DNA of 64,000 bases from Clostridia bacterium (lineage in GTDB: Bacteria; Bacillota; Clostridia; Christensenellales; CAG-138): assembly GCA_030527115.1 (NCBI GenBank), contig JAUNBM010000003.1, forward strand, positions 5,837-69,836. Reading direction: 5' to 3'. Positions within the stretch are counted from its first letter, which is position 1, and each line of letters begins with the position of its first letter. This document shows, piece by piece, positions 8,425-58,043 of the stretch. Both the position numbers and the translations under genes were made by a program. The notes under the pieces were generated by a model. It did no database searches. It was given only the letters and a program-made list of their open reading frames with translations, and had not been told where the DNA came from.

Positions 8425-8500
8425 GCGGGAGTAGCTCATTTGGTAGAGCGCAGCCTTGCCAAGGCTGAGGTGGCGGGTTCGAGCCCCGTCTCCCGCTCCA
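8425..8500 (+). tRNA. tRNA-Gly (anticodon GCC), CCA encoded
   Basis: The cloverleaf folds by hand: acceptor GCGGGAG/CTCCCGC, anticodon arm CAGCC-TTGCCAA-GGCTG, T-arm GGCGGGTTCGAGCCCCGTC. Confidence 0.9.
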
Positions 8501-8506
8501 TTTTTT

Positions 8507-8583
8507 GCCTCCTTAGCTCAGCTGGCTAGAGCACCTGACTCTTAATCAGGGTGTCCAGGGTTCGAATCCCTGAGGGGGTACCA
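8507..8583 (+). tRNA. tRNA-Lys (anticodon CTT), CCA encoded
   Basis: D-arm GCTCAGCTGGCTAGAGC, anticodon arm CCTGA-CTCTTAA-TCAGG, T-arm CAGGGTTCGAATCCCTG. The acceptor stem has two G-U pairs. Confidence 0.85.
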
Positions 8584-11510: not shown

Positions 11511-13040
11511 ATGAAAAAGAAGATTTCTTTTTTGCTCGTTCTGATGATGGCTATCGGCGTTTTTTGCGCCATGCCGCTTGCGGCGGCCGCCGAAAGCCAG
11601 ATAGTAGGCGATGCAGATATGAACGGAGCAATTGAGGCGAACGATGCGGCGACGGTTTTGCGCCATGTTGTGCGCATCAGCGAACTGACGGGACAAGCGC
11701 TGATAAATGCGGACGCAAACTGCGACGGCGAAGTGAATTCGCAGGACAGCGCGCTGATACTGCGCTATGTAGTCAAGCTGGAAACGGTTCTCCCGCCTTC
11801 GGGAGGAACGCTGGTTACCCCGCCGATAACCAATACTCCCCCTCCGACGGCGACCCCAACGCCAACTCCAACTCCAACTCCGTTTATCAACCGCTCGCTG
11901 GGCGACGTCGACCTTAATGGAAATATTGAGGCGGCGGACGCTTCGATGATCCTGAGATATTTGGTCCGGCTGACGGATCTTACCGACATACAGCTCAAGA
12001 ATGCTGACGTCACCTTTGACGAGCAGGTGTCCGCGTCCGACGCTGCACGCATCTTGAGATATATTGTCAGGCTGATCAGCGATTTGAATATCTGGCCCGA
12101 TCCCACCGCTGTTCCAACGGTAACTCCAACGCCCACGGCAACTCCGGTGCCAACTAACAAGGACGGACTGCCCGCCGCGGGAACCAAGGGCCTCATCGTG
12201 CCGGACGACGATCCCAACTACGAAAGAATAATGGGCTACTATCTCAACCGCAGTCTGTGGACTAACGAGCTGAACCCGAACAATTCGAGCTATTCGGAAA
12301 GCGAGTTTTGGACCTCGTCGATACCTCAACGCTCGTTCCGCTTTATTACCGTAAATATGCAGGGCAAGACGGAACGCGGCCTCAACGGAGCGGTCTACGA
12401 TTATACCGCGAACAACGAGGACATAATCGGATGGGTGCGCATGGCGTTCTACGGCAAGGAAAACAATAGAAGCCGGCCCTATACCGCGAACATCGGGATA
12501 AGCGATTATCGCGTTATAGACGAACCTATAATGTACGACCCCTATGGCAGGCAGTATTATTTCGATCATACCTGCTACGGACTTGAAACCGCCGGCGGCT
12601 CGCTGATGGCATACTATGATACGCTGGCGAAGAATATCGTTGTCACGGGCCACAATTCGAGGCCGACCAAGACGCATTTCCATCATCTGCACACGATGCA
12701 GAGCGGGGCGAAGTATTATGGTTCGAGCATCAATCCCGACAACTATATCTTCGACATCTCCATCTTCGGGCTTACCAAGTGGCAGGTGTGGGCGATGTAT
12801 GAGACTTCGGAGAACGAGCCGTCCTCAACGCTGTTGTACAACATAAGCTCCTCCTGCGGAACGGACGGCAATGTGCAAAACTGGATCAATACCCAGCTTA
12901 CAAGGAGCGAGGTGAACTTCAAGGTTTCCGTCTCCACGAACGACCAGTTCTTGACGCTGTACACCTGCGCCGACGCCTATGACAGCAGCGATGATACGAC
13001 TCAGGCGAGGCTGTATGTGTTCCTGAAGTATGTTGGATAG
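11511..13040 (+). CDS. class B sortase with N-terminal signal peptide and two dockerin type-I modules
   Basis: - Signal peptide MKKKISFLLVLMMAIGVFCAMPLAAAAE.
- Dockerin 1: GDADMNGAIEANDAATVLRHVV + NADANCDGEVNSQDSALILRYVV.
- TP linker.
- Dockerin 2: GDVDLNGNIEAADASMILRYLV + NADVTFDEQVSASDAARILRYIV.
- Catalytic part: NEDIIGWVRM, YYFDH, NIVVTGHNSR (His), LTLYTCAD (Cys), ARLYVF (Arg). Confidence 0.8.
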   Translation: MKKKISFLLVLMMAIGVFCAMPLAAAAESQIVGDADMNGAIEANDAATVLRHVVRISELTGQALINADANCDGEVNSQDSALILRYVVKLETVLPPSGGTLVTPPITNTPPPTATPTPTPTPTPFINRSLGDVDLNGNIEAADASMILRYLVRLTDLTDIQLKNADVTFDEQVSASDAARILRYIVRLISDLNIWPDPTAVPTVTPTPTATPVPTNKDGLPAAGTKGLIVPDDDPNYERIMGYYLNRSLWTNELNPNNSSYSESEFWTSSIPQRSFRFITVNMQGKTERGLNGAVYDYTANNEDIIGWVRMAFYGKENNRSRPYTANIGISDYRVIDEPIMYDPYGRQYYFDHTCYGLETAGGSLMAYYDTLAKNIVVTGHNSRPTKTHFHHLHTMQSGAKYYGSSINPDNYIFDISIFGLTKWQVWAMYETSENEPSSTLLYNISSSCGTDGNVQNWINTQLTRSEVNFKVSVSTNDQFLTLYTCADAYDSSDDTTQARLYVFLKYVG

Positions 13041-51063: not shown

Positions 51064-51228
51064 TACGGTGAATACATGGTAGCTTGCCGATAGTGCCTAT
51101 TTGCGGGCTTCCATGGAAAGCTTAAAACTTGGCTTCGCTTTTGTCCCGTGAAATTTCAAAAAGGGGAGGGAAGGGGAGCGGGGGCTTTGAGCAAAAAAAC
51201 AAAAACAAATAGGAGGAAAAACACACTT

Positions 51229-54200
51229 ATGAAGAAAGCATTGGCACTTATCCTTTCTCTGGCAATGGTTCTTTGCTTGATTCCGGCGGTGGCAGGCGCT
51301 GTTGGTGAAACGGCGACTGCGATGACGACTGCTCCCGTGGATGGAGATCAGGTCGTTATCTATTATCCCGCGGGTGCAACCGCAGTCAGCAACACCGAGT
51401 ACCTTTATGAGTCGCGCGGCTATTGGCAGCTTGAGCCCGTTGAGGTTACGGTTACTGAAGGCGCAATGACCGTTCCGGAGGGCGCCGCTGTATTGGACGT
51501 CACCGTTGATGAAAACGGCAATTACACCTTCGTCGATCAGAACGGCGAGTATCTGACGGCAGGCGAAACCGGTAACAACCTCACCTTCGAGGCTGCCGCA
51601 AGCGATTACAGCCTGTGGATTCCCGAAGATGCAGGAAACGGCAACTTCTATATCAAGAATGTAAACGCCGCTTACAACGAGAGACCCCAGTATCTGGAGT
51701 TCTACAACAACTTCACCACCTATGGCTTCAATGATAGCAATACGGCTATCTACACCTTCACCTTCTTTAAGGTAGAAGCATCCGACCCCGGCCCCATTGA
51801 CCCGCCTCCGGCTGAGAAATCCGATGATATCGTAATTCTCTACAGCAATGACGTGCATTGCGGCATCGGCGAAGAGATTGAAGAAGATGGCACGCTTGTT
51901 AGCTACAGCGGCGGCTATGCGGCTCTCGCGGCTGTCAAGAAGGGCCTTGAGGCGACCCACAACAACGTCCTGCTCGTAGACGCGGGCGACAGCATTCAGG
52001 GCGCGCCGATTGGCACGATTTCCCGCGGTTCCTACATCATCGACATCATGAACTATGTCGGCTATGACGTATCGGCAGTCGGCAACCATGAGTTCGATTA
52101 TGGCATGGATCGCTTCTTCGAGCTGGAAGCGCTGGCTAACTTCCCGTTCGTGGCGGCAAACTTCATGGATCTCACCGCCAATGAGCCGGTTCTGGACGCA
52201 TACAGCGTATTTACCCTTGGCGACGTCAAGGTAGCCTTCGTTGGTATCTCGACCCCCGAAACCCTGACTAAGTCCACCCCGACTTACTTCCAGGATGCGG
52301 AGGGCAACTGGATCTATGATTTCGCGAACGAGAGCTTTGAGACCTTCATCGCCGCGATTCAGCCCGCCATCGATGCGGCTAAAGTTGAAGTCGGCGAGAC
52401 CGGCTATGTTATAGCCCTTGCCCACTTGGGCATTGACCCGTCCTCTACCCCCTGGACTTCCACCGAGATGATCGCGGCGGTATCCGGCCTTGACGCCGTT
52501 ATCGACGGACACTCCCACAGCACGGTTGAAAACCAGATAGTAAAAGATAAGGACGGCAACGATGTAGTCCTCACCCAGACCGGCACGAAGCTTGAAAATG
52601 TTGGCAAGATGACGATTACCGCAGAAGGCATCGTCACCGAGCTTATTCCTCTGGAGGAAGCCGAGGTTGACAAGGACACCAGCGACTACCTGGTAAGCAT
52701 CGCGAGCCTGTACAACGCCGATCTGCAGACCGTCGTTGCGCACACCAACTTCGATCTCACGGTAAACGATCCCGCGACCGGAAGCCGTATCATTCGCAGC
52801 CAGGAAACCAACCTGGGCGACCTCGCGGCGGATGCATATCGCGATCAGCTCGATTCCGACATAGCGTTTGTCAACGGCGGCGGCGTTCGTGCGAACATCC
52901 CTGCAGGCGACATTACCTATGGCCAGATCCTGACGGTACACCCGTTCGGCAACATGGCATGCTTGGTTGAAGTTACCGGCCAGCAGGTTCTCGACGCCCT
53001 TGAGTGGGGCAACAGAATGGTTGGCGTTGGCGAGAACGGCGGCTTTTTGCAGGTATCCGGAATCACCTTTGAGGTTGACCCGAATGTTGAAAACGGTTGC
53101 GTCGTAGATGCGGCTGGAATGTGGGCCGGTCATACCGGCGAGTACAGGGTTAAGAACGTAATGGTCGGAGGAGAGCCTCTGGATCTCGAAGCGAAATATA
53201 CGCTGGCTTCCCACAACTATATGCTCAAGAGCCAGGGCGACGGCTATGCCATGTTTGGAACAGCCAACGTTACCCTGCTCCGTGACGAAGTCCTGATCGA
53301 CAATCAGGTTCTCATCAACTACATCCAGGGCACGCTGGGCGGCGAAATCCCCGAAGTCTATGCAAACCCCTATGGCCAGGGCAGAATCACCATCCTGCCG
53401 ATAGTTGAGGGCGAACCCGAGTATGACTACTATATTGCCGGCGACAGAGGCTATGAGTCCGAATTCACGACCGATGCAAACGGCAACCTGGTCTTCAACC
53501 TGACGCTTGGCGAGCTGGGCGAGAATGAGCTTATCAGCGCGCTTGAGTTTGACCTGGCATGGGATGCAACCAAGCTGGAGCTCGTATCCGCCGTTGCTAA
53601 CCCCTTGACGAGCAGGAATGCTTTCGGCGCTGAAGTCGCTGTGAACCCCGAGCTTAACGTGGATGCGGTTATGCCCAACACGAGCGAGATCTACTATGCG
53701 GTTGCCACGAGCGTTGGCGGCTGGTTCGCAGAGGATCTCAGCAACGTCGTCATGACCCTGACCTTCCAGATCAAGGACGGAGTTGCCGATGGCGAACAGC
53801 TCGACGTTGAGTTCACCAAGTTCAAGTTCTCCGTTGTCAACAGCGAAACCCAGACGATAGTCGATATCCCCGAGGATCAAGTCGGCGCATATGACGGCTA
53901 TATCATTGTCGGCAACGCCCCCGCTCCGGTCGTTGACAAGAGCGCTCTGATCGCGCTTGATGCGCAGTATGACGCAGTTATGACCACCGTTGTAGCGAGC
54001 GCGAACGGCATGGATCTGACCGCAGGCACGCTCTGGCTGACCGAGGCGGAGATTGCCACGAACACCGCCGCTCTGGCGGCTTCCCAGGCAGTCATCGACA
54101 ATGCGGAAGCAACTCAGGAAGAGGTCGATGCGGCATATCAGGCATTGCTTGCGGCCTTCATTCAGCCCAAGACCGTCGTTCTCGACTATACCGCGCTGAA

Positions 54201-54471
54201 TGCGGCTCTCGCCGCCGCGAATGAGTTCGTTGCGAGCGAAGACTTTGCAAACTGCTCCGAGGAGCTCCAGAAGGCATGGACGGATGCGATTGCGGCGGCT
54301 ACCGCTCTGATCGACAATCCGGAAGCCACCCAGAACGCCATCAACGCCGCGACTGACGCGCTGAACGCGCTCAAGAAGACCGGCGAGTCCGCAACCTACA
54401 TCATCTTTGCGGGCATAGCTGTTCTGGCAATGCTTGGCATGGCTGTCGTGGTTCGCCGCAGATTCAACTAA
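51229..54471 (+). CDS. cell-surface bifunctional metallophosphatase/5'-nucleotidase with cohesin-like module, two FIVAR-like repeats and C-terminal sorting signal
   Basis: - ATG follows AGGAGG, then signal peptide MKKALALILSLAMVLCLIPAVAGA.
- Metallophosphatase/nucleotidase motifs: NDVHCG, GDSIQG, GNHEFDYG, DGHSH, ETNLGDLAADAYR, NGGGVRA.
- Cohesin-like module: ISALEFDLAWDATKLELVSA...MTLTFQIKDGVADGEQLDVEF...GYIIVG.
- FIVAR-like: ATQEEVDAAYQALLAAF and ATQNAINAATDALNAL.
- Sorting signal: LKKTGE + hydrophobic helix + RRRFN. Confidence 0.85.
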   Translation: MKKALALILSLAMVLCLIPAVAGAVGETATAMTTAPVDGDQVVIYYPAGATAVSNTEYLYESRGYWQLEPVEVTVTEGAMTVPEGAAVLDVTVDENGNYTFVDQNGEYLTAGETGNNLTFEAAASDYSLWIPEDAGNGNFYIKNVNAAYNERPQYLEFYNNFTTYGFNDSNTAIYTFTFFKVEASDPGPIDPPPAEKSDDIVILYSNDVHCGIGEEIEEDGTLVSYSGGYAALAAVKKGLEATHNNVLLVDAGDSIQGAPIGTISRGSYIIDIMNYVGYDVSAVGNHEFDYGMDRFFELEALANFPFVAANFMDLTANEPVLDAYSVFTLGDVKVAFVGISTPETLTKSTPTYFQDAEGNWIYDFANESFETFIAAIQPAIDAAKVEVGETGYVIALAHLGIDPSSTPWTSTEMIAAVSGLDAVIDGHSHSTVENQIVKDKDGNDVVLTQTGTKLENVGKMTITAEGIVTELIPLEEAEVDKDTSDYLVSIASLYNADLQTVVAHTNFDLTVNDPATGSRIIRSQETNLGDLAADAYRDQLDSDIAFVNGGGVRANIPAGDITYGQILTVHPFGNMACLVEVTGQQVLDALEWGNRMVGVGENGGFLQVSGITFEVDPNVENGCVVDAAGMWAGHTGEYRVKNVMVGGEPLDLEAKYTLASHNYMLKSQGDGYAMFGTANVTLLRDEVLIDNQVLINYIQGTLGGEIPEVYANPYGQGRITILPIVEGEPEYDYYIAGDRGYESEFTTDANGNLVFNLTLGELGENELISALEFDLAWDATKLELVSAVANPLTSRNAFGAEVAVNPELNVDAVMPNTSEIYYAVATSVGGWFAEDLSNVVMTLTFQIKDGVADGEQLDVEFTKFKFSVVNSETQTIVDIPEDQVGAYDGYIIVGNAPAPVVDKSALIALDAQYDAVMTTVVASANGMDLTAGTLWLTEAEIATNTAALAASQAVIDNAEATQEEVDAAYQALLAAFIQPKTVVLDYTALNAALAAANEFVASEDFANCSEELQKAWTDAIAAATALIDNPEATQNAINAATDALNALKKTGESATYIIFAGIAVLAMLGMAVVVRRRFN

Positions 54472-54904: not shown

Positions 54905-57358
54905 TTGATTGGAGACTCGGCAAGAAGAATATTGAGCTTTGTGGTAGTCGTGCTTTTCACGATAGCTTTATTGTTGCCGTTTGGACTTGCAACTTCGGAT
55001 GCGTTGGCTGAGACCGCTCAGCTCCCTGAAGTCGCGGGCATGGATTCCGAGATAACGATGGAGCAACCGAGCGATGCTTCGTCCACCGAACCAAGCGCCG
55101 AGCCTACGGCAGAACCAAGTACCGAACCGTCCGAGAGCCCGCAACCGGGCGAATTTGAAATTGATACGACTAAGAAGATCGCGTTTGAACTGGGCTATAC
55201 TTTGAGCGACGGCACGGAGATATATGTGTCGCTGGGCGAGCTTACGCTTGCCGAGCTTGAGGCGCGAACTCCCGCCATTGAACACACCTATTCATATTTG
55301 AACGGAGGAAACGCGGAACAGGGCGTTGCCCCCACGGTTACCTATGTCACGGCAAAGGGCTATACTCTGCGCCAGCTCCTTGACAGCACGAATACGACGA
55401 TTGAAGACAGCCTTATCGGTAGCATAAGCTTTGGACAGGATAAGCTGGCAGGCTCGCTGTTCAGCTCCAAGAACAGCTATGTTGACCTGCACAAGAACCT
55501 GATGGTCGGGGACGACGGACAGCTCTACGCGGCGGATATGCAGGTTTTGTCGGTACCTGCGCTGTTTGCGATATACGAGAGTAGCGAGACCTATGCGCTG
55601 GAGGCGGAAACTCCGTCGGCCACGACGGCGAACGCGCAAAACGATACCTTCCACCTGCTCACAGGGCAGGAAAGCGCCACGCAAACGGGGGTATATTCGA
55701 GCCATCGCGATATCCGCACCCTTAGAATCACCTTGAAGGACACTCCGGTGCTTACGCTTCCGAGCGACGATTTCAACATGATAGTGAACGAGCGCAAGCA
55801 GGTTGACGTTGGAGTTTCGAGCGGAGTGCATCAGGGGCTGACGGACGCTTATATCAACCATGTGCTGAGCTGGCAAAGCTCGGACGAAAGCGTGGTGAGC
55901 GTCGCTTCCGGCGAGCTTACGGCGCACAAGGCGGGTACTGCGACGATTACGGCGACTGCCGGAGGAACGGCTTCGAGCTTCAACGTGACGGTTTTCGGAA
56001 CCTACGCCATAAGCTATAATTCCAACGTGAGCGGGATTGACGTGGCGGATATGCCCGCCATGCAGACGAAGATTCACGGCACGAACATACAGATTTCAGA
56101 CAAGATTCCAACGCGGGCGGACGGCTATGTTTTCGCGGGCTGGAACACGGCGGCTGACGGAAGCGGAACGAGCTATCAGCCCTCCGCCGTCTATTCGGAC
56201 AATGCGGATTTAAGCCTCTTTGCCCAATGGGAGACGGCGAAGATAACCATAACCTTTGATCCGAGCCTGCCTTCAGGGGTTACGGCTCAGCCAACCAACT
56301 GGCCCACCAACGTGAGCATAGCGCCGGGGAGCGAATTTACCTTCCCTGCGACCGATCCCGTGCTGTCCGGCTATGAGTTCCGCGGCTGGCAGTATACTAT
56401 CAACAAGGTTACCTATACGAAATACGCGGGCAATAAGGAGAGCGGTTTTACCGAGGACGTAACGGTGAGTGCGCTTTGGATTGAGAAGGAGGCGGTTCAG
56501 TATACCGTAACGCTCAAGGCGAACGGCGGTATGTTTTTAATCACCTCAACGACTACGGGCGATTCCACGCATACGCTGACCGTAAACGCCGGAACCCAAA
56601 TCCGCCTCAGCAACTATAACTGCAAAAAGAGCGGAAGCTATCCTACGAACTGGAAGGGCAGCGACGGTAAAACCTATTCAAACTCCGTGTATATCACGAT
56701 AAATTCCAACATGACGTTTACGGCTCAGTGGACGACAACGACGACCACGACGAAGTATACGATAACCTATAACGGCAATGCGGACGGAGTTACCAATGTT
56801 CCGGGCAAGCAAACCAAGAGCAAGGGCGCATCGCTCACGATATCCTCGCAGGTGCCGGTTCGGAGCGGCTACACCTTTGCCGGGTGGAATACCTCCAAGA
56901 CCGGAACGGGCACCTCGTATAAGGCGGGAACGGTATACCGCACCGACAGTAATCTAACGCTCTATGCCCAGTGGACGCAGGTGACGGCAAGCCCAACGCC
57001 TACGGCGACCCCAACGCCCACCCCCACGCCCACGCCAACCCCGACGCCGATACCGGACGCCGTTTTGGACGATGAGGCGGTGATCAATCCGATCGAGGTG
57101 AGCCTGAAGCCCGTCGTTTACTTCGGGAACGACGAGCCAACGCCGACCCCGCCGGAGGGGGAGGCAACTGCAATACCGACACTGCGACCCACCGCCGAGC
57201 CTACGCCTGAGCCGGAAAAGACGGCGGAGGAACTGGAAATCGAGGAGGCAGAGGAGGCGAAGCAACGCTCAACCTATGCCATCGTCGGAGTATCAAACGG
57301 AATCTTGCTGATCGCGGGAAGCTGTCTTGCGGTAGTCAAGTTTAACATACAGCTATAA
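54905..57358 (+). CDS. large surface protein: signal peptide, unassigned N-terminal module, Big_2-like domain, four Listeria-Bacteroides (Flg_new-type) repeats, Thr/Pro/Glu-rich spacer, C-terminal TM anchor
   Basis: - TTG start 8 nt after GGGAGGG; extended -10 TGCTATAAT at 54866-54874.
- VVSVASGELTAHKAGTATITATAGG (Big_2-like).
- Repeats with GYVFAGWNT, GYEFRGWQ, GYTFAGWNT cores ending (F/Y)AQW(E/T).
- ASPTPTATPTPTPTPTPTPTP spacer.
- TYAIVGVSNGILLIAGSCLAVVKF C-terminal helix. Confidence 0.8.
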   Translation: MIGDSARRILSFVVVVLFTIALLLPFGLATSDALAETAQLPEVAGMDSEITMEQPSDASSTEPSAEPTAEPSTEPSESPQPGEFEIDTTKKIAFELGYTLSDGTEIYVSLGELTLAELEARTPAIEHTYSYLNGGNAEQGVAPTVTYVTAKGYTLRQLLDSTNTTIEDSLIGSISFGQDKLAGSLFSSKNSYVDLHKNLMVGDDGQLYAADMQVLSVPALFAIYESSETYALEAETPSATTANAQNDTFHLLTGQESATQTGVYSSHRDIRTLRITLKDTPVLTLPSDDFNMIVNERKQVDVGVSSGVHQGLTDAYINHVLSWQSSDESVVSVASGELTAHKAGTATITATAGGTASSFNVTVFGTYAISYNSNVSGIDVADMPAMQTKIHGTNIQISDKIPTRADGYVFAGWNTAADGSGTSYQPSAVYSDNADLSLFAQWETAKITITFDPSLPSGVTAQPTNWPTNVSIAPGSEFTFPATDPVLSGYEFRGWQYTINKVTYTKYAGNKESGFTEDVTVSALWIEKEAVQYTVTLKANGGMFLITSTTTGDSTHTLTVNAGTQIRLSNYNCKKSGSYPTNWKGSDGKTYSNSVYITINSNMTFTAQWTTTTTTTKYTITYNGNADGVTNVPGKQTKSKGASLTISSQVPVRSGYTFAGWNTSKTGTGTSYKAGTVYRTDSNLTLYAQWTQVTASPTPTATPTPTPTPTPTPTPIPDAVLDDEAVINPIEVSLKPVVYFGNDEPTPTPPEGEATAIPTLRPTAEPTPEPEKTAEELEIEEAEEAKQRSTYAIVGVSNGILLIAGSCLAVVKFNIQL

Positions 57359-57374: not shown

Positions 57375-58043
57375 ATGCTATTATCGAGTGTTCCCATTGC
57401 AACAGGCGCGGAGGGCGCTGTGGAGTCCGGTAATTTTTTGACAGACGTTATGCGCACGATTGCCGAGGCAATGCGCTATCCGGTAATCATCATCTTGATT
57501 CTGATGTTTGCCTGCGTCGTCGTATTCATAGGCTGGCTGATCGCGGAATATTTCACCGAGCGCCGGCATCTCAACGTCAAGCTTCCCCAGCTTTTGGACA
57601 GGCTCAAGGAGGGTTACGACCCGATAGAGGTTTGCATTGAGGAGAGCGGGCTTCTAAAGAGGCAAAAAGCGGCGCTGTTCGAGCTGACAATGCACCCGAA
57701 TTTTACCCCCGATATGCGGGAGGCGCTTGCGATACGGCTGATTACCGAGGAACAGGTGCGGTATGACAAGATAGTGCGCTTCAGCGACCTGATTGTGAAG
57801 CTTGGCCCGGTATTCGGACTTTTGGGAACCTTGATTCCGCTCGGCCCCGGAATAATCGCTCTGGGACAGGGCGATACCGCCTTGCTTTCATCGTCGATGC
57901 TCATAGCCTTTGACACAACCATCATAGGACTAATCTGTTCGGGACTGGCGCTCATGATTTCGTCGATTCGCAAGAGCTGGTACAGGAACTATATGTCCCT
58001 GCTCGAAACGGTAATGGAAGTCGTGCTTGAGTTGGAGAAGTAG
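57375..58043 (+). CDS. MotA/TolQ/ExbB-family proton-channel protein
   Basis: AAGGAG RBS, 16 nt after the upstream stop. Three TM helices. LGPVFGLLGTLIPLGPGIIAL and LIAFDTTIIGLICSGLALMISS match the ExbB/TolQ TM2-TM3 signature. Confidence 0.85.
   Translation: MLLSSVPIATGAEGAVESGNFLTDVMRTIAEAMRYPVIIILILMFACVVVFIGWLIAEYFTERRHLNVKLPQLLDRLKEGYDPIEVCIEESGLLKRQKAALFELTMHPNFTPDMREALAIRLITEEQVRYDKIVRFSDLIVKLGPVFGLLGTLIPLGPGIIALGQGDTALLSSSMLIAFDTTIIGLICSGLALMISSIRKSWYRNYMSLLETVMEVVLELEK

Follow-up and report, generated by a model that had tools for sequence, protein, structure and literature searches.

A divergent cohesin in a surface 5'-nucleotidase

A predicted surface 5'-nucleotidase of 1080 aa, encoded in a 64-kb stretch of a Clostridia bacterium contig (JAUNBM010000003.1; the whole stretch is referred to as the window, and its coordinates are counted from its first position), carries behind its catalytic domains a module of ~160 aa that profile searches and structure prediction identify as a genuine, highly divergent cohesin with a beta jelly-roll fold. 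On the favoured reading, held with moderate confidence, this cohesin probably acts as an anchoring site for dockerin-bearing proteins. Enzyme-borne cohesins as such were already known, and the unusualness attributed to this one in a preliminary description of the window was overstated, with precedents in Amy4 of Ruminococcus bromii (PMC4611034) and GH84C and GH33 of Clostridium perfringens (2w1n, 2vo8). What is new here is the joining of an ecto-5'-nucleotidase to a ScaE-like cohesin/FIVAR/sorting cassette whose cohesin belongs to a rare, unannotated subfamily, and the module-level concerted evolution of enzyme-borne and stand-alone cohesins.

Searches with the single sequence returned weak matches. 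The window protein matched Pfam Cohesin (PF00963) at residues 756-860 with 17.5 bits (expectation value, E, 0.0048; gathering score 24.1), a phmmer search of the Protein Data Bank (PDB) gave E 0.08 with an unrelated Vps74 chain ranked first, which was dismissed as noise after the profile searches, and a word-indexed protein search with the module alone as query gave no match. With HMMER, an exhaustive scan covering 1.84 billion representatives recovered only 15 relatives of the module. A four-sequence profile matched the ScaB cohesin of Acetivibrio cellulolyticus in the PDB (5nrk, E 1.9e-4), and a profile built from a 17-sequence alignment of the cohesin subfamily (A2) matched the same structure at E 6.4e-8, along with 3kcp (4.4e-5), 4ums (1.8e-4), 5lxv, 1aoh, 4uyp and 5n5p; the top eight matches were all cohesins (8/8). 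AlphaFold2 supplied with A2 produced an all-beta model (predicted local distance difference test score, pLDDT, 94.4; predicted template modelling score 0.87), a model from the four-sequence alignment having been discarded at pLDDT 51. When the A2 model was compared with the PDB by Foldseek, the first 47 chains were all cohesins (E 2e-7 to 1.7e-3), spanning type I cohesins, ScaC, CohG and ScaE of Ruminococcus flavefaciens, and the cohesins of C. perfringens GH84C and GH33. The nucleotidase orthologues P0014, P0019 and P0020 share the module at the homologous position with the same sub-threshold Cohesin match (17.6-22.2 bits), and three members of the subfamily exceed the gathering score over the homologous stretch (P0122, 34.8 bits; P0124, 25.9 bits; P0127, 39.0 bits).

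Cohesin homology is concluded because the A2 profile, the high-confidence model and the three homologues above the Pfam cut-off converge. The same three results effectively refute a chance or generic beta-sandwich likeness without homology (immunoglobulin-like or carbohydrate-binding module), the explanation that the weak single-sequence searches would have favoured. The preliminary description had placed a cohesin-like segment at 53440-53920 and named such a generic fold as the outcome that would count against it; the profile and Foldseek searches that it proposed put cohesins first, and the position was essentially right (the strands of the AlphaFold2 model give 53428-53907). The peptide strings that it quoted were all found in the + strand open reading frame (ORF) 51148..54471, and its account of a surface 5'-nucleotidase was sound, apart from a length one residue too long (1081 aa).

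By likeness the module is closest to type I cohesins, which is a statement of resemblance and not of cohesin type. Two features set it apart from these, a conserved, subfamily-specific N-terminal beta extension (Y-x-Y...GD-x-GYE) that is absent from type I cohesins and a length-variable beta insertion. The subfamily is rare. A profile from alignment A1 found the module in two of 185,579 species-representative genomes, both of them already known metagenome-assembled genomes (MAGs), a genome scan with the single cassette as query found no match, and a scan of Joint Genome Institute metagenomes found two weak relatives (28-30% identity). Within the window, the nucleotidase gene is the only cohesin-bearing ORF and has a single cohesin.

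A portable cassette with a putative anchor

The C-terminal 362 aa of the nucleotidase consist of the cohesin, two three-helix FIVAR repeats, the motif LKKTGE, a hydrophobic helix and the tail RRRFN. This cassette aligned end to end with the 374-aa protein P0121 (52% identity over 362 aa), in which the front consists of a signal peptide alone, and the same stand-alone layout of ~380 aa (signal peptide, cohesin, FIVAR, L-x-KTGE anchor) was found in P0121, P0122, P0127, P0129 and P0133. The sorting motif has the family consensus L-x-[KQ]-T-G-E, with a canonical LPKTGE in P0126. The cassette is portable, occurring both fused behind a complete UshA-type nucleotidase and alone. Among the other relatives, P0124 and P0125 have the module at the N-terminus and a Pfam-confirmed dockerin at the C-terminus, which is an adaptor layout; P0132 shares this layout with a C-terminus that is dockerin-like by eye and in which Pfam has no family; and P0128, P0130 and P0131 combine the module with BspA-type LRR_5 repeats, without a Pfam-detected dockerin.

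P0121 and the window gene were assembled from one and the same sample (SRR24915838), and the contig of P0121 resembles the window in GC content (0.551 versus 0.548) and in tetranucleotide composition (r 0.959, above the 0.922 of the window's own fragment L001). Because sample and contig composition agree, P0121 is probably a paralogue in the same genome as the window gene. In L008 the gene for the stand-alone P0122 (1126-2277) is followed 1 kb later by the gene (3252 onward) for a second, distantly related nucleotidase of the P0126 type, which has 1492 aa and carries a cohesin; the fusion may have arisen from such a neighbourhood. The P0127 gene in MAG GCA_030526995.1 has phage terminase and portal genes just downstream (L013 2043-4403).

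Concerted evolution of the cohesin

Three lineages could be compared, through one pair of proteins from one MAG and two pairs from one sample each. In these, homogenisation between the enzyme and its lineage's stand-alone anchor affects the cohesin alone, and not the tail. Between the window nucleotidase and its orthologues, identity was 67-68% in the catalytic domains and 56-59% in the FIVAR/anchor tail, compared to 33-43% in the cohesin; between the window nucleotidase and the stand-alone P0121 it was 47% in the tail and 62% in the cohesin. The cohesins of P0020 and P0127, both in MAG GCA_030526995.1, shared 59% identity, and those of P0019 and P0122, both from sample SRR31904132, shared 68%. 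Overall, cohesin identity was 59-68% between enzyme-borne and stand-alone proteins within a lineage and 33-45% among orthologous nucleotidases. In a neighbour-joining tree of the cohesins each of the three within-lineage pairs had 100% bootstrap support, compared to 0% for the same pairs in the tree of the tails, where the nucleotidase-type tails grouped together at 99% and the stand-alone tails of P0121 and P0127 at 84%.

The homogenisation could be due to gene conversion or to co-evolution. The pattern is that expected from species-specific cohesin-dockerin recognition and, as read from sequence, is the chief argument for a ligand shared with the stand-alone anchor and for the module being a working interaction domain. 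As a sequence-only sign of shared ligand specificity, concerted evolution of this kind could help to predict cohesin-dockerin wiring in metagenomes.

Proposed role and competing explanations

In the proposed mechanism, the protein would be exported and then kept on the cell surface, either through a sortase cross-link to peptidoglycan or by its C-terminal helix. The catalytic domains would dephosphorylate extracellular nucleotides for nucleoside salvage, and the cohesin would bind, in a calcium-dependent manner, the dockerins of proteins secreted by the same organism, such that the nucleotidase would be an anchoring site like ScaE or Sca2 that also carries an enzyme. The role of anchoring platform is plausible because of the stand-alone anchored cassettes, the relatives with a cohesin...dockerin layout and the concerted evolution; dockerin binding is itself a prediction, supported by dockerin proteins on the same contig and by membership of a cohesin-dockerin network. 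Dockerin proteins of the clade that are candidate partners include endonuclease I, an S8 peptidase, cell-wall hydrolases and the sortase of the window. Anchoring scaffoldins are non-catalytic and this protein has complete Metallophos and 5_nucleotid_C domains, so that it would work like an anchor yet is not a plain scaffoldin.

Several observations weigh against this role. The window sequence itself misses the Pfam Cohesin cut-off (17.5 versus 24.1 bits), and all columns conserved throughout the subfamily resemble core residues, with no surface-exposed position shown to be conserved. The sorting signal lies slightly under the curated cut-offs, so covalent anchoring to the wall stays putative, and P0121 was assigned to the same genome by sample identity and composition only. 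Concerted evolution could also reflect gene conversion without selection for a shared ligand.

The first two of these observations would suit a module that kept the cohesin fold without being a dockerin receptor, serving as a rigid spacer from the wall or as a binder of a glycan, host or matrix component, and the pairing of the module with LRR_5 repeats in P0128, P0130 and P0131 points the same way. This explanation appears rather unlikely, given that other relatives are classic cohesin...dockerin adaptors, that the cassette equals the single-cohesin anchored proteins of the ScaE/Sca2 type, that the same genome encodes dockerin proteins, and that a passive spacer would hardly account for concerted evolution confined to the module.

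Nucleotide scavenging and the cohesin-dockerin network

The enzyme belongs to the UshA-type superfamily, having Metallophos and 5_nucleotid_C domains with intact metal-binding motifs (DVHC, DAGD, GNHEFD, AHLG and GHSH are visible in the translation), and its activity is predicted from these features. The UshA and Nt5e families of NCBIfam matched as general homologues, all far under their equivalog cut-offs (Nt5e NF040549, 207.7 bits versus a curated cut-off of 1050). Of the 17 closest homologues that are not identical to the enzyme, 14 are tandem nucleotidases with a dockerin at the end. The tandem-nucleotidase homologues P0002 and P0012 have Pfam-significant cohesins in the order enzyme, cohesin(s), dockerin, and in most of the others the A2 profile detected cohesin-like modules, one or two per protein.

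Two extracellular endonuclease I proteins (P0160 and P0163) have a cohesin-like module by the A2 profile (E ~1e-10) and a dockerin-like end that Pfam does not detect as a dockerin, and a third endonuclease I (P0154; L016 814-1899), from a sample that also holds P0019, has a Pfam-confirmed dockerin and no cohesin. The orthologues P0014 and P0019 each have a gene of the uridine kinase family immediately upstream (L007 6928-7614; L011 1990-2676), a context in keeping with nucleoside salvage, and a giant S8 peptidase gene further upstream, with a confirmed dockerin in the first case (L007 1-4612) and of partial sequence in the second (L011 1-1807). At the P0014 locus the dockerin-bearing peptidase is encoded two genes beyond the uridine-kinase-family gene. 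A literature search on cohesins or dockerins with nucleotidases or nucleases found nothing relevant.

Together, these proteins suggest that enzymes scavenging nucleotides and nucleic acids are displayed in this clade by way of cohesin-dockerin links. Such assemblies are best known from the degradation of cellulose and starch; here the cohesin is part of a nucleotide-degrading enzyme from an uncultured Clostridia lineage, a hint that the scavenging of extracellular nucleic acids and nucleotides can be organised in the same manner. There is also an annotation gap, as the database entry for the protein gives phosphatase and FIVAR domains only and standard annotation misses the cohesin. Divergent cohesins of this kind are probably under-counted, and a 2026 AlphaFold survey of ruminococci makes the same case (PMC13463774).

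A dockerin-bearing sortase in the window

The preliminary description had named a sortase (Table 1) as the only dockerin protein in the window and as the possible partner of the cohesin. An ORF scan bore out the first statement. The sortase ORF matched Dockerin_1 in two stretches (69.5 bits) and Pfam Sortase slightly below threshold (24.8 versus 26.6 bits), and its catalytic domain has a TLYTC motif and its best PDB matches in sortase B structures (6kyc, 4ux7 and 1ng5). It is a member of a small, conserved family of ~16 sequence clusters, with dockerins joined by Pro/Thr linkers and a conserved gene order of Metallophos gene, Trypsin_2 peptidase gene and sortase (relatives at L005 4451-5911 and L015 4001-5473); the relatives have a second, shorter dockerin-sortase paralogue after the first. 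No description of dockerin-bearing sortases was found in the literature searched.

The proposed pairing, in which the cohesin would receive one or both sortase dockerins and so tether the sortase to the nucleotidase, possibly its own L-x-KTGE substrate, appears improbable. The two genes share a contig and are matched within the window, the sortase as the only dockerin ORF and the nucleotidase as the bearer of the only cohesin and the only L-x-KTGE signal. Both families are rare (~16 sequence clusters for the sortase; 15 representatives for the module), and they co-occur in a second genome, as a sortase orthologue (P0137) is found in the same MAG as P0014 (GCA_028694155.1). The catalytic domain is also SrtB-like, and SrtB of Clostridioides difficile acts on (S/P)PxTG motifs. 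However, 38 kb separate the two genes, in no relative are they found at one locus, shared descent alone would lead one to expect their co-occurrence within a clade, and 64 kb cover little of a genome that probably runs to megabases. The clade also has further dockerin proteins, among them the S8 peptidase near an orthologue, endonuclease I and cell-wall hydrolases. The dockerin recognition positions (10, 11, 17 and 18) are nearly unchanged across lineages, with dockerin identity of 51-67% compared to 33-45% for the cohesins; near-constant recognition positions set against diverged cohesins are mild, not decisive, sequence evidence against the pairing.

A broader version, in which the sortase would use its dockerins to bind the cohesins of the L-x-KTGE proteins that it processes (the nucleotidase and the stand-alone anchors), likewise carries little probability; if true, the cohesin-dockerin pair would be a substrate-recruitment device for a sortase, a use beyond enzyme display. 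Overall, of the earlier interpretation, the cohesin is real and the predicted platform role is likely, while the pairing with the sortase is unsupported, being based on proximity within a 64-kb window only.

Gene, domain layout and neighbouring genes

The enclosing ORF (51148..54471, +) contains the true start codon, ATG 51229. The AGGAGG sequence 12 nt before this codon sets the start there, and the protein is therefore 1080 aa; orthologues likewise start with MKKALALILSLAM. The translation is identical to a database protein (P0001) that NCBI names 'MAG: Clostridia bacterium, 5'-nucleotidase C-terminal domain-containing protein'. The flanking domains named in the preliminary description were recovered above threshold (Metallophos, 5_nucleotid_C and FIVAR) with the exception of the LPXTG-type anchor, which fell just below (TIGR01167, 14.9 versus 15.9 bits; Gram_pos_anchor, 13.2 versus 20 bits, residues 1051-1079). 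The N-terminal stretch before the phosphatase, left unassigned there, indeed has no Pfam or PDB sequence match; it shares 36-37% identity with the N-termini of P0002 and P0014 and could be a substrate- or surface-binding beta domain.

Table 1. Features of the nucleotidase gene and of the dockerin-bearing sortase gene in the window. Pfam residue numbers run +1, the protein having been translated from 51226.
Feature	Coordinates	Strand	Basis and remarks
Gene for 1080-aa surface 5'-nucleotidase with cohesin	51229..54471, stop codon included	+	ORF; P0001
Shine-Dalgarno sequence AGGAGG	51211..51216	+	12 nt before start codon; from sequence
Predicted signal peptide MKKALALILSLAMVLCLIPAVAGA	51229..51300	+	Predicted from sequence features; kept in P0014 and P0019
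N-terminal domain, ~165 aa	51301..51810	+	No significant Pfam or PDB sequence match
Metallophos (calcineurin-like) catalytic domain, PF00149	51835..52521	+	38.5 bits versus cut-off 21.5; residues 204-432
5_nucleotid_C substrate-binding domain, PF02872	52789..53259	+	131.3 bits versus cut-off 23.6; residues 522-678
Cohesin module	53428..53907	+	AlphaFold2 strands, Pfam, profile A2, Foldseek; Pfam-aligned core 53491-53805
FIVAR-like helical repeat 1, weak	53938..54180	+	No Pfam match here; FIVAR in same region of P0019, P0020 and P0121
FIVAR repeat 2, PF07554	54184..54378	+	43.8 bits versus gathering score 29.2; residues 987-1051
LKKTGE, LPXTG-type sorting motif with relaxed P position	54370..54387	+	
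Hydrophobic membrane-spanning stretch, then RRRFN charged tail	54388..54468	+	Sequence; kept in 11 family members
SrtB-like sortase with two N-terminal dockerins	11511..13040	+	Doc1 11604-11780; Doc2 11898-12074; catalytic 12183-13037

With gaps of 335 nt upstream and 433 nt downstream, the nucleotidase gene looks monocistronic. Promoter-like sites around it were at chance level, and terminator-like sites were about twice as frequent as in shuffled sequence (8 versus a mean of 4.0, sd 2.1, ~2x). An Rfam scan of the window found no known RNA element near the gene, the only matches being two tRNAs elsewhere, adjacent to each other at 8425-8580 (+). An antisense ORF (51097..53880, -; 927 aa) was rejected as a shadow of the coding strand in DNA of 55% GC, similar ones occurring window-wide.

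The next gene downstream (54905-57358, +) encodes an 817-aa surface protein with four Listeria-Bacteroides (Flg_new) repeats, Big_2, Pro/Thr linkers and a C-terminal membrane helix, without an LPXTG-like motif. It is followed by a proton-channel gene of the MotA/ExbB family (57375-58043, +). In L001, the matching contig, a DUF2149 gene comes next, and the two form an ExbB/ExbD-like pair in a genome that is presumably of Gram-positive-type Clostridia.

Comparison with known systems

The best profile and fold matches of the module are the type I ScaB cohesins of A. cellulolyticus (5nrk) and Pseudobacteroides cellulosolvens (4ums), with which it shares a hallmark strand motif (...f.v.yD.tkLe....). 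Identity to these is 18-19% and the window module is ~20 residues longer, with the N-terminal extension and the variable insertion; it also sits in an enzyme, whereas ScaB is a multi-cohesin scaffoldin. GH84C (NagJ) and the GH33 sialidase of C. perfringens are likewise non-cellulosomal enzymes with an internal cohesin and are among the significant fold matches (2w1n, 2o4e, 2jh2 and 2vo8). They differ in being glycoside hydrolases of a pathogen, with FN3 after the cohesin in place of FIVAR and an anchor, and in an identity of 9-16%. The C. perfringens system also has FIVAR modules beside dockerins.

With the LPXTG ecto-5'-nucleotidases of Gram-positive cocci (Nt5e_LPXTG NF040549; 5nuc_LPXTG_Strp NF047875) the window protein shares the two catalytic domains and, putatively, a C-terminal sorting signal for the cell surface, though it scores 207.7 and 54.1 against these families, each with a cut-off of 1050, and the proteins of the cocci lack the cohesin, FIVAR and the N-terminal extra domain.

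In ScaE of R. flavefaciens, a signal peptide is followed by a single cohesin and an LPXTG-type signal at the C-terminus, and the protein is the surface root to which dockerin proteins attach (PMC2930009). Sca2 of R. bromii is a sortase-anchored scaffoldin with a single cohesin (PMC4611034). The stand-alone P0121, P0122 and P0127 have exactly this layout of signal peptide, one cohesin and sorting signal, and ScaE cohesin structures (9gvb and 8ajy) are among the fold matches, though at E ~1e-3 they are weaker than type I cohesins (E ~2e-7). In the window protein, by contrast, a large enzyme precedes the cassette, FIVAR stands between cohesin and anchor, the motif is L-x-KTGE and not LPXTG, and there is no sign of a carbohydrate-degrading system.

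Amy4 (Sca1) of R. bromii is an enzyme with a cohesin of its own and so nucleates small enzyme complexes in the amylosome (PMC4611034), and its order of enzyme, cohesin(s) and dockerin is shared by P0002 and P0012. Amy4 is a GH13 amylase ending in a dockerin, whereas the window protein is a 5'-nucleotidase ending in a wall or membrane anchor, and can thus be the root of an assembly and not its cargo.

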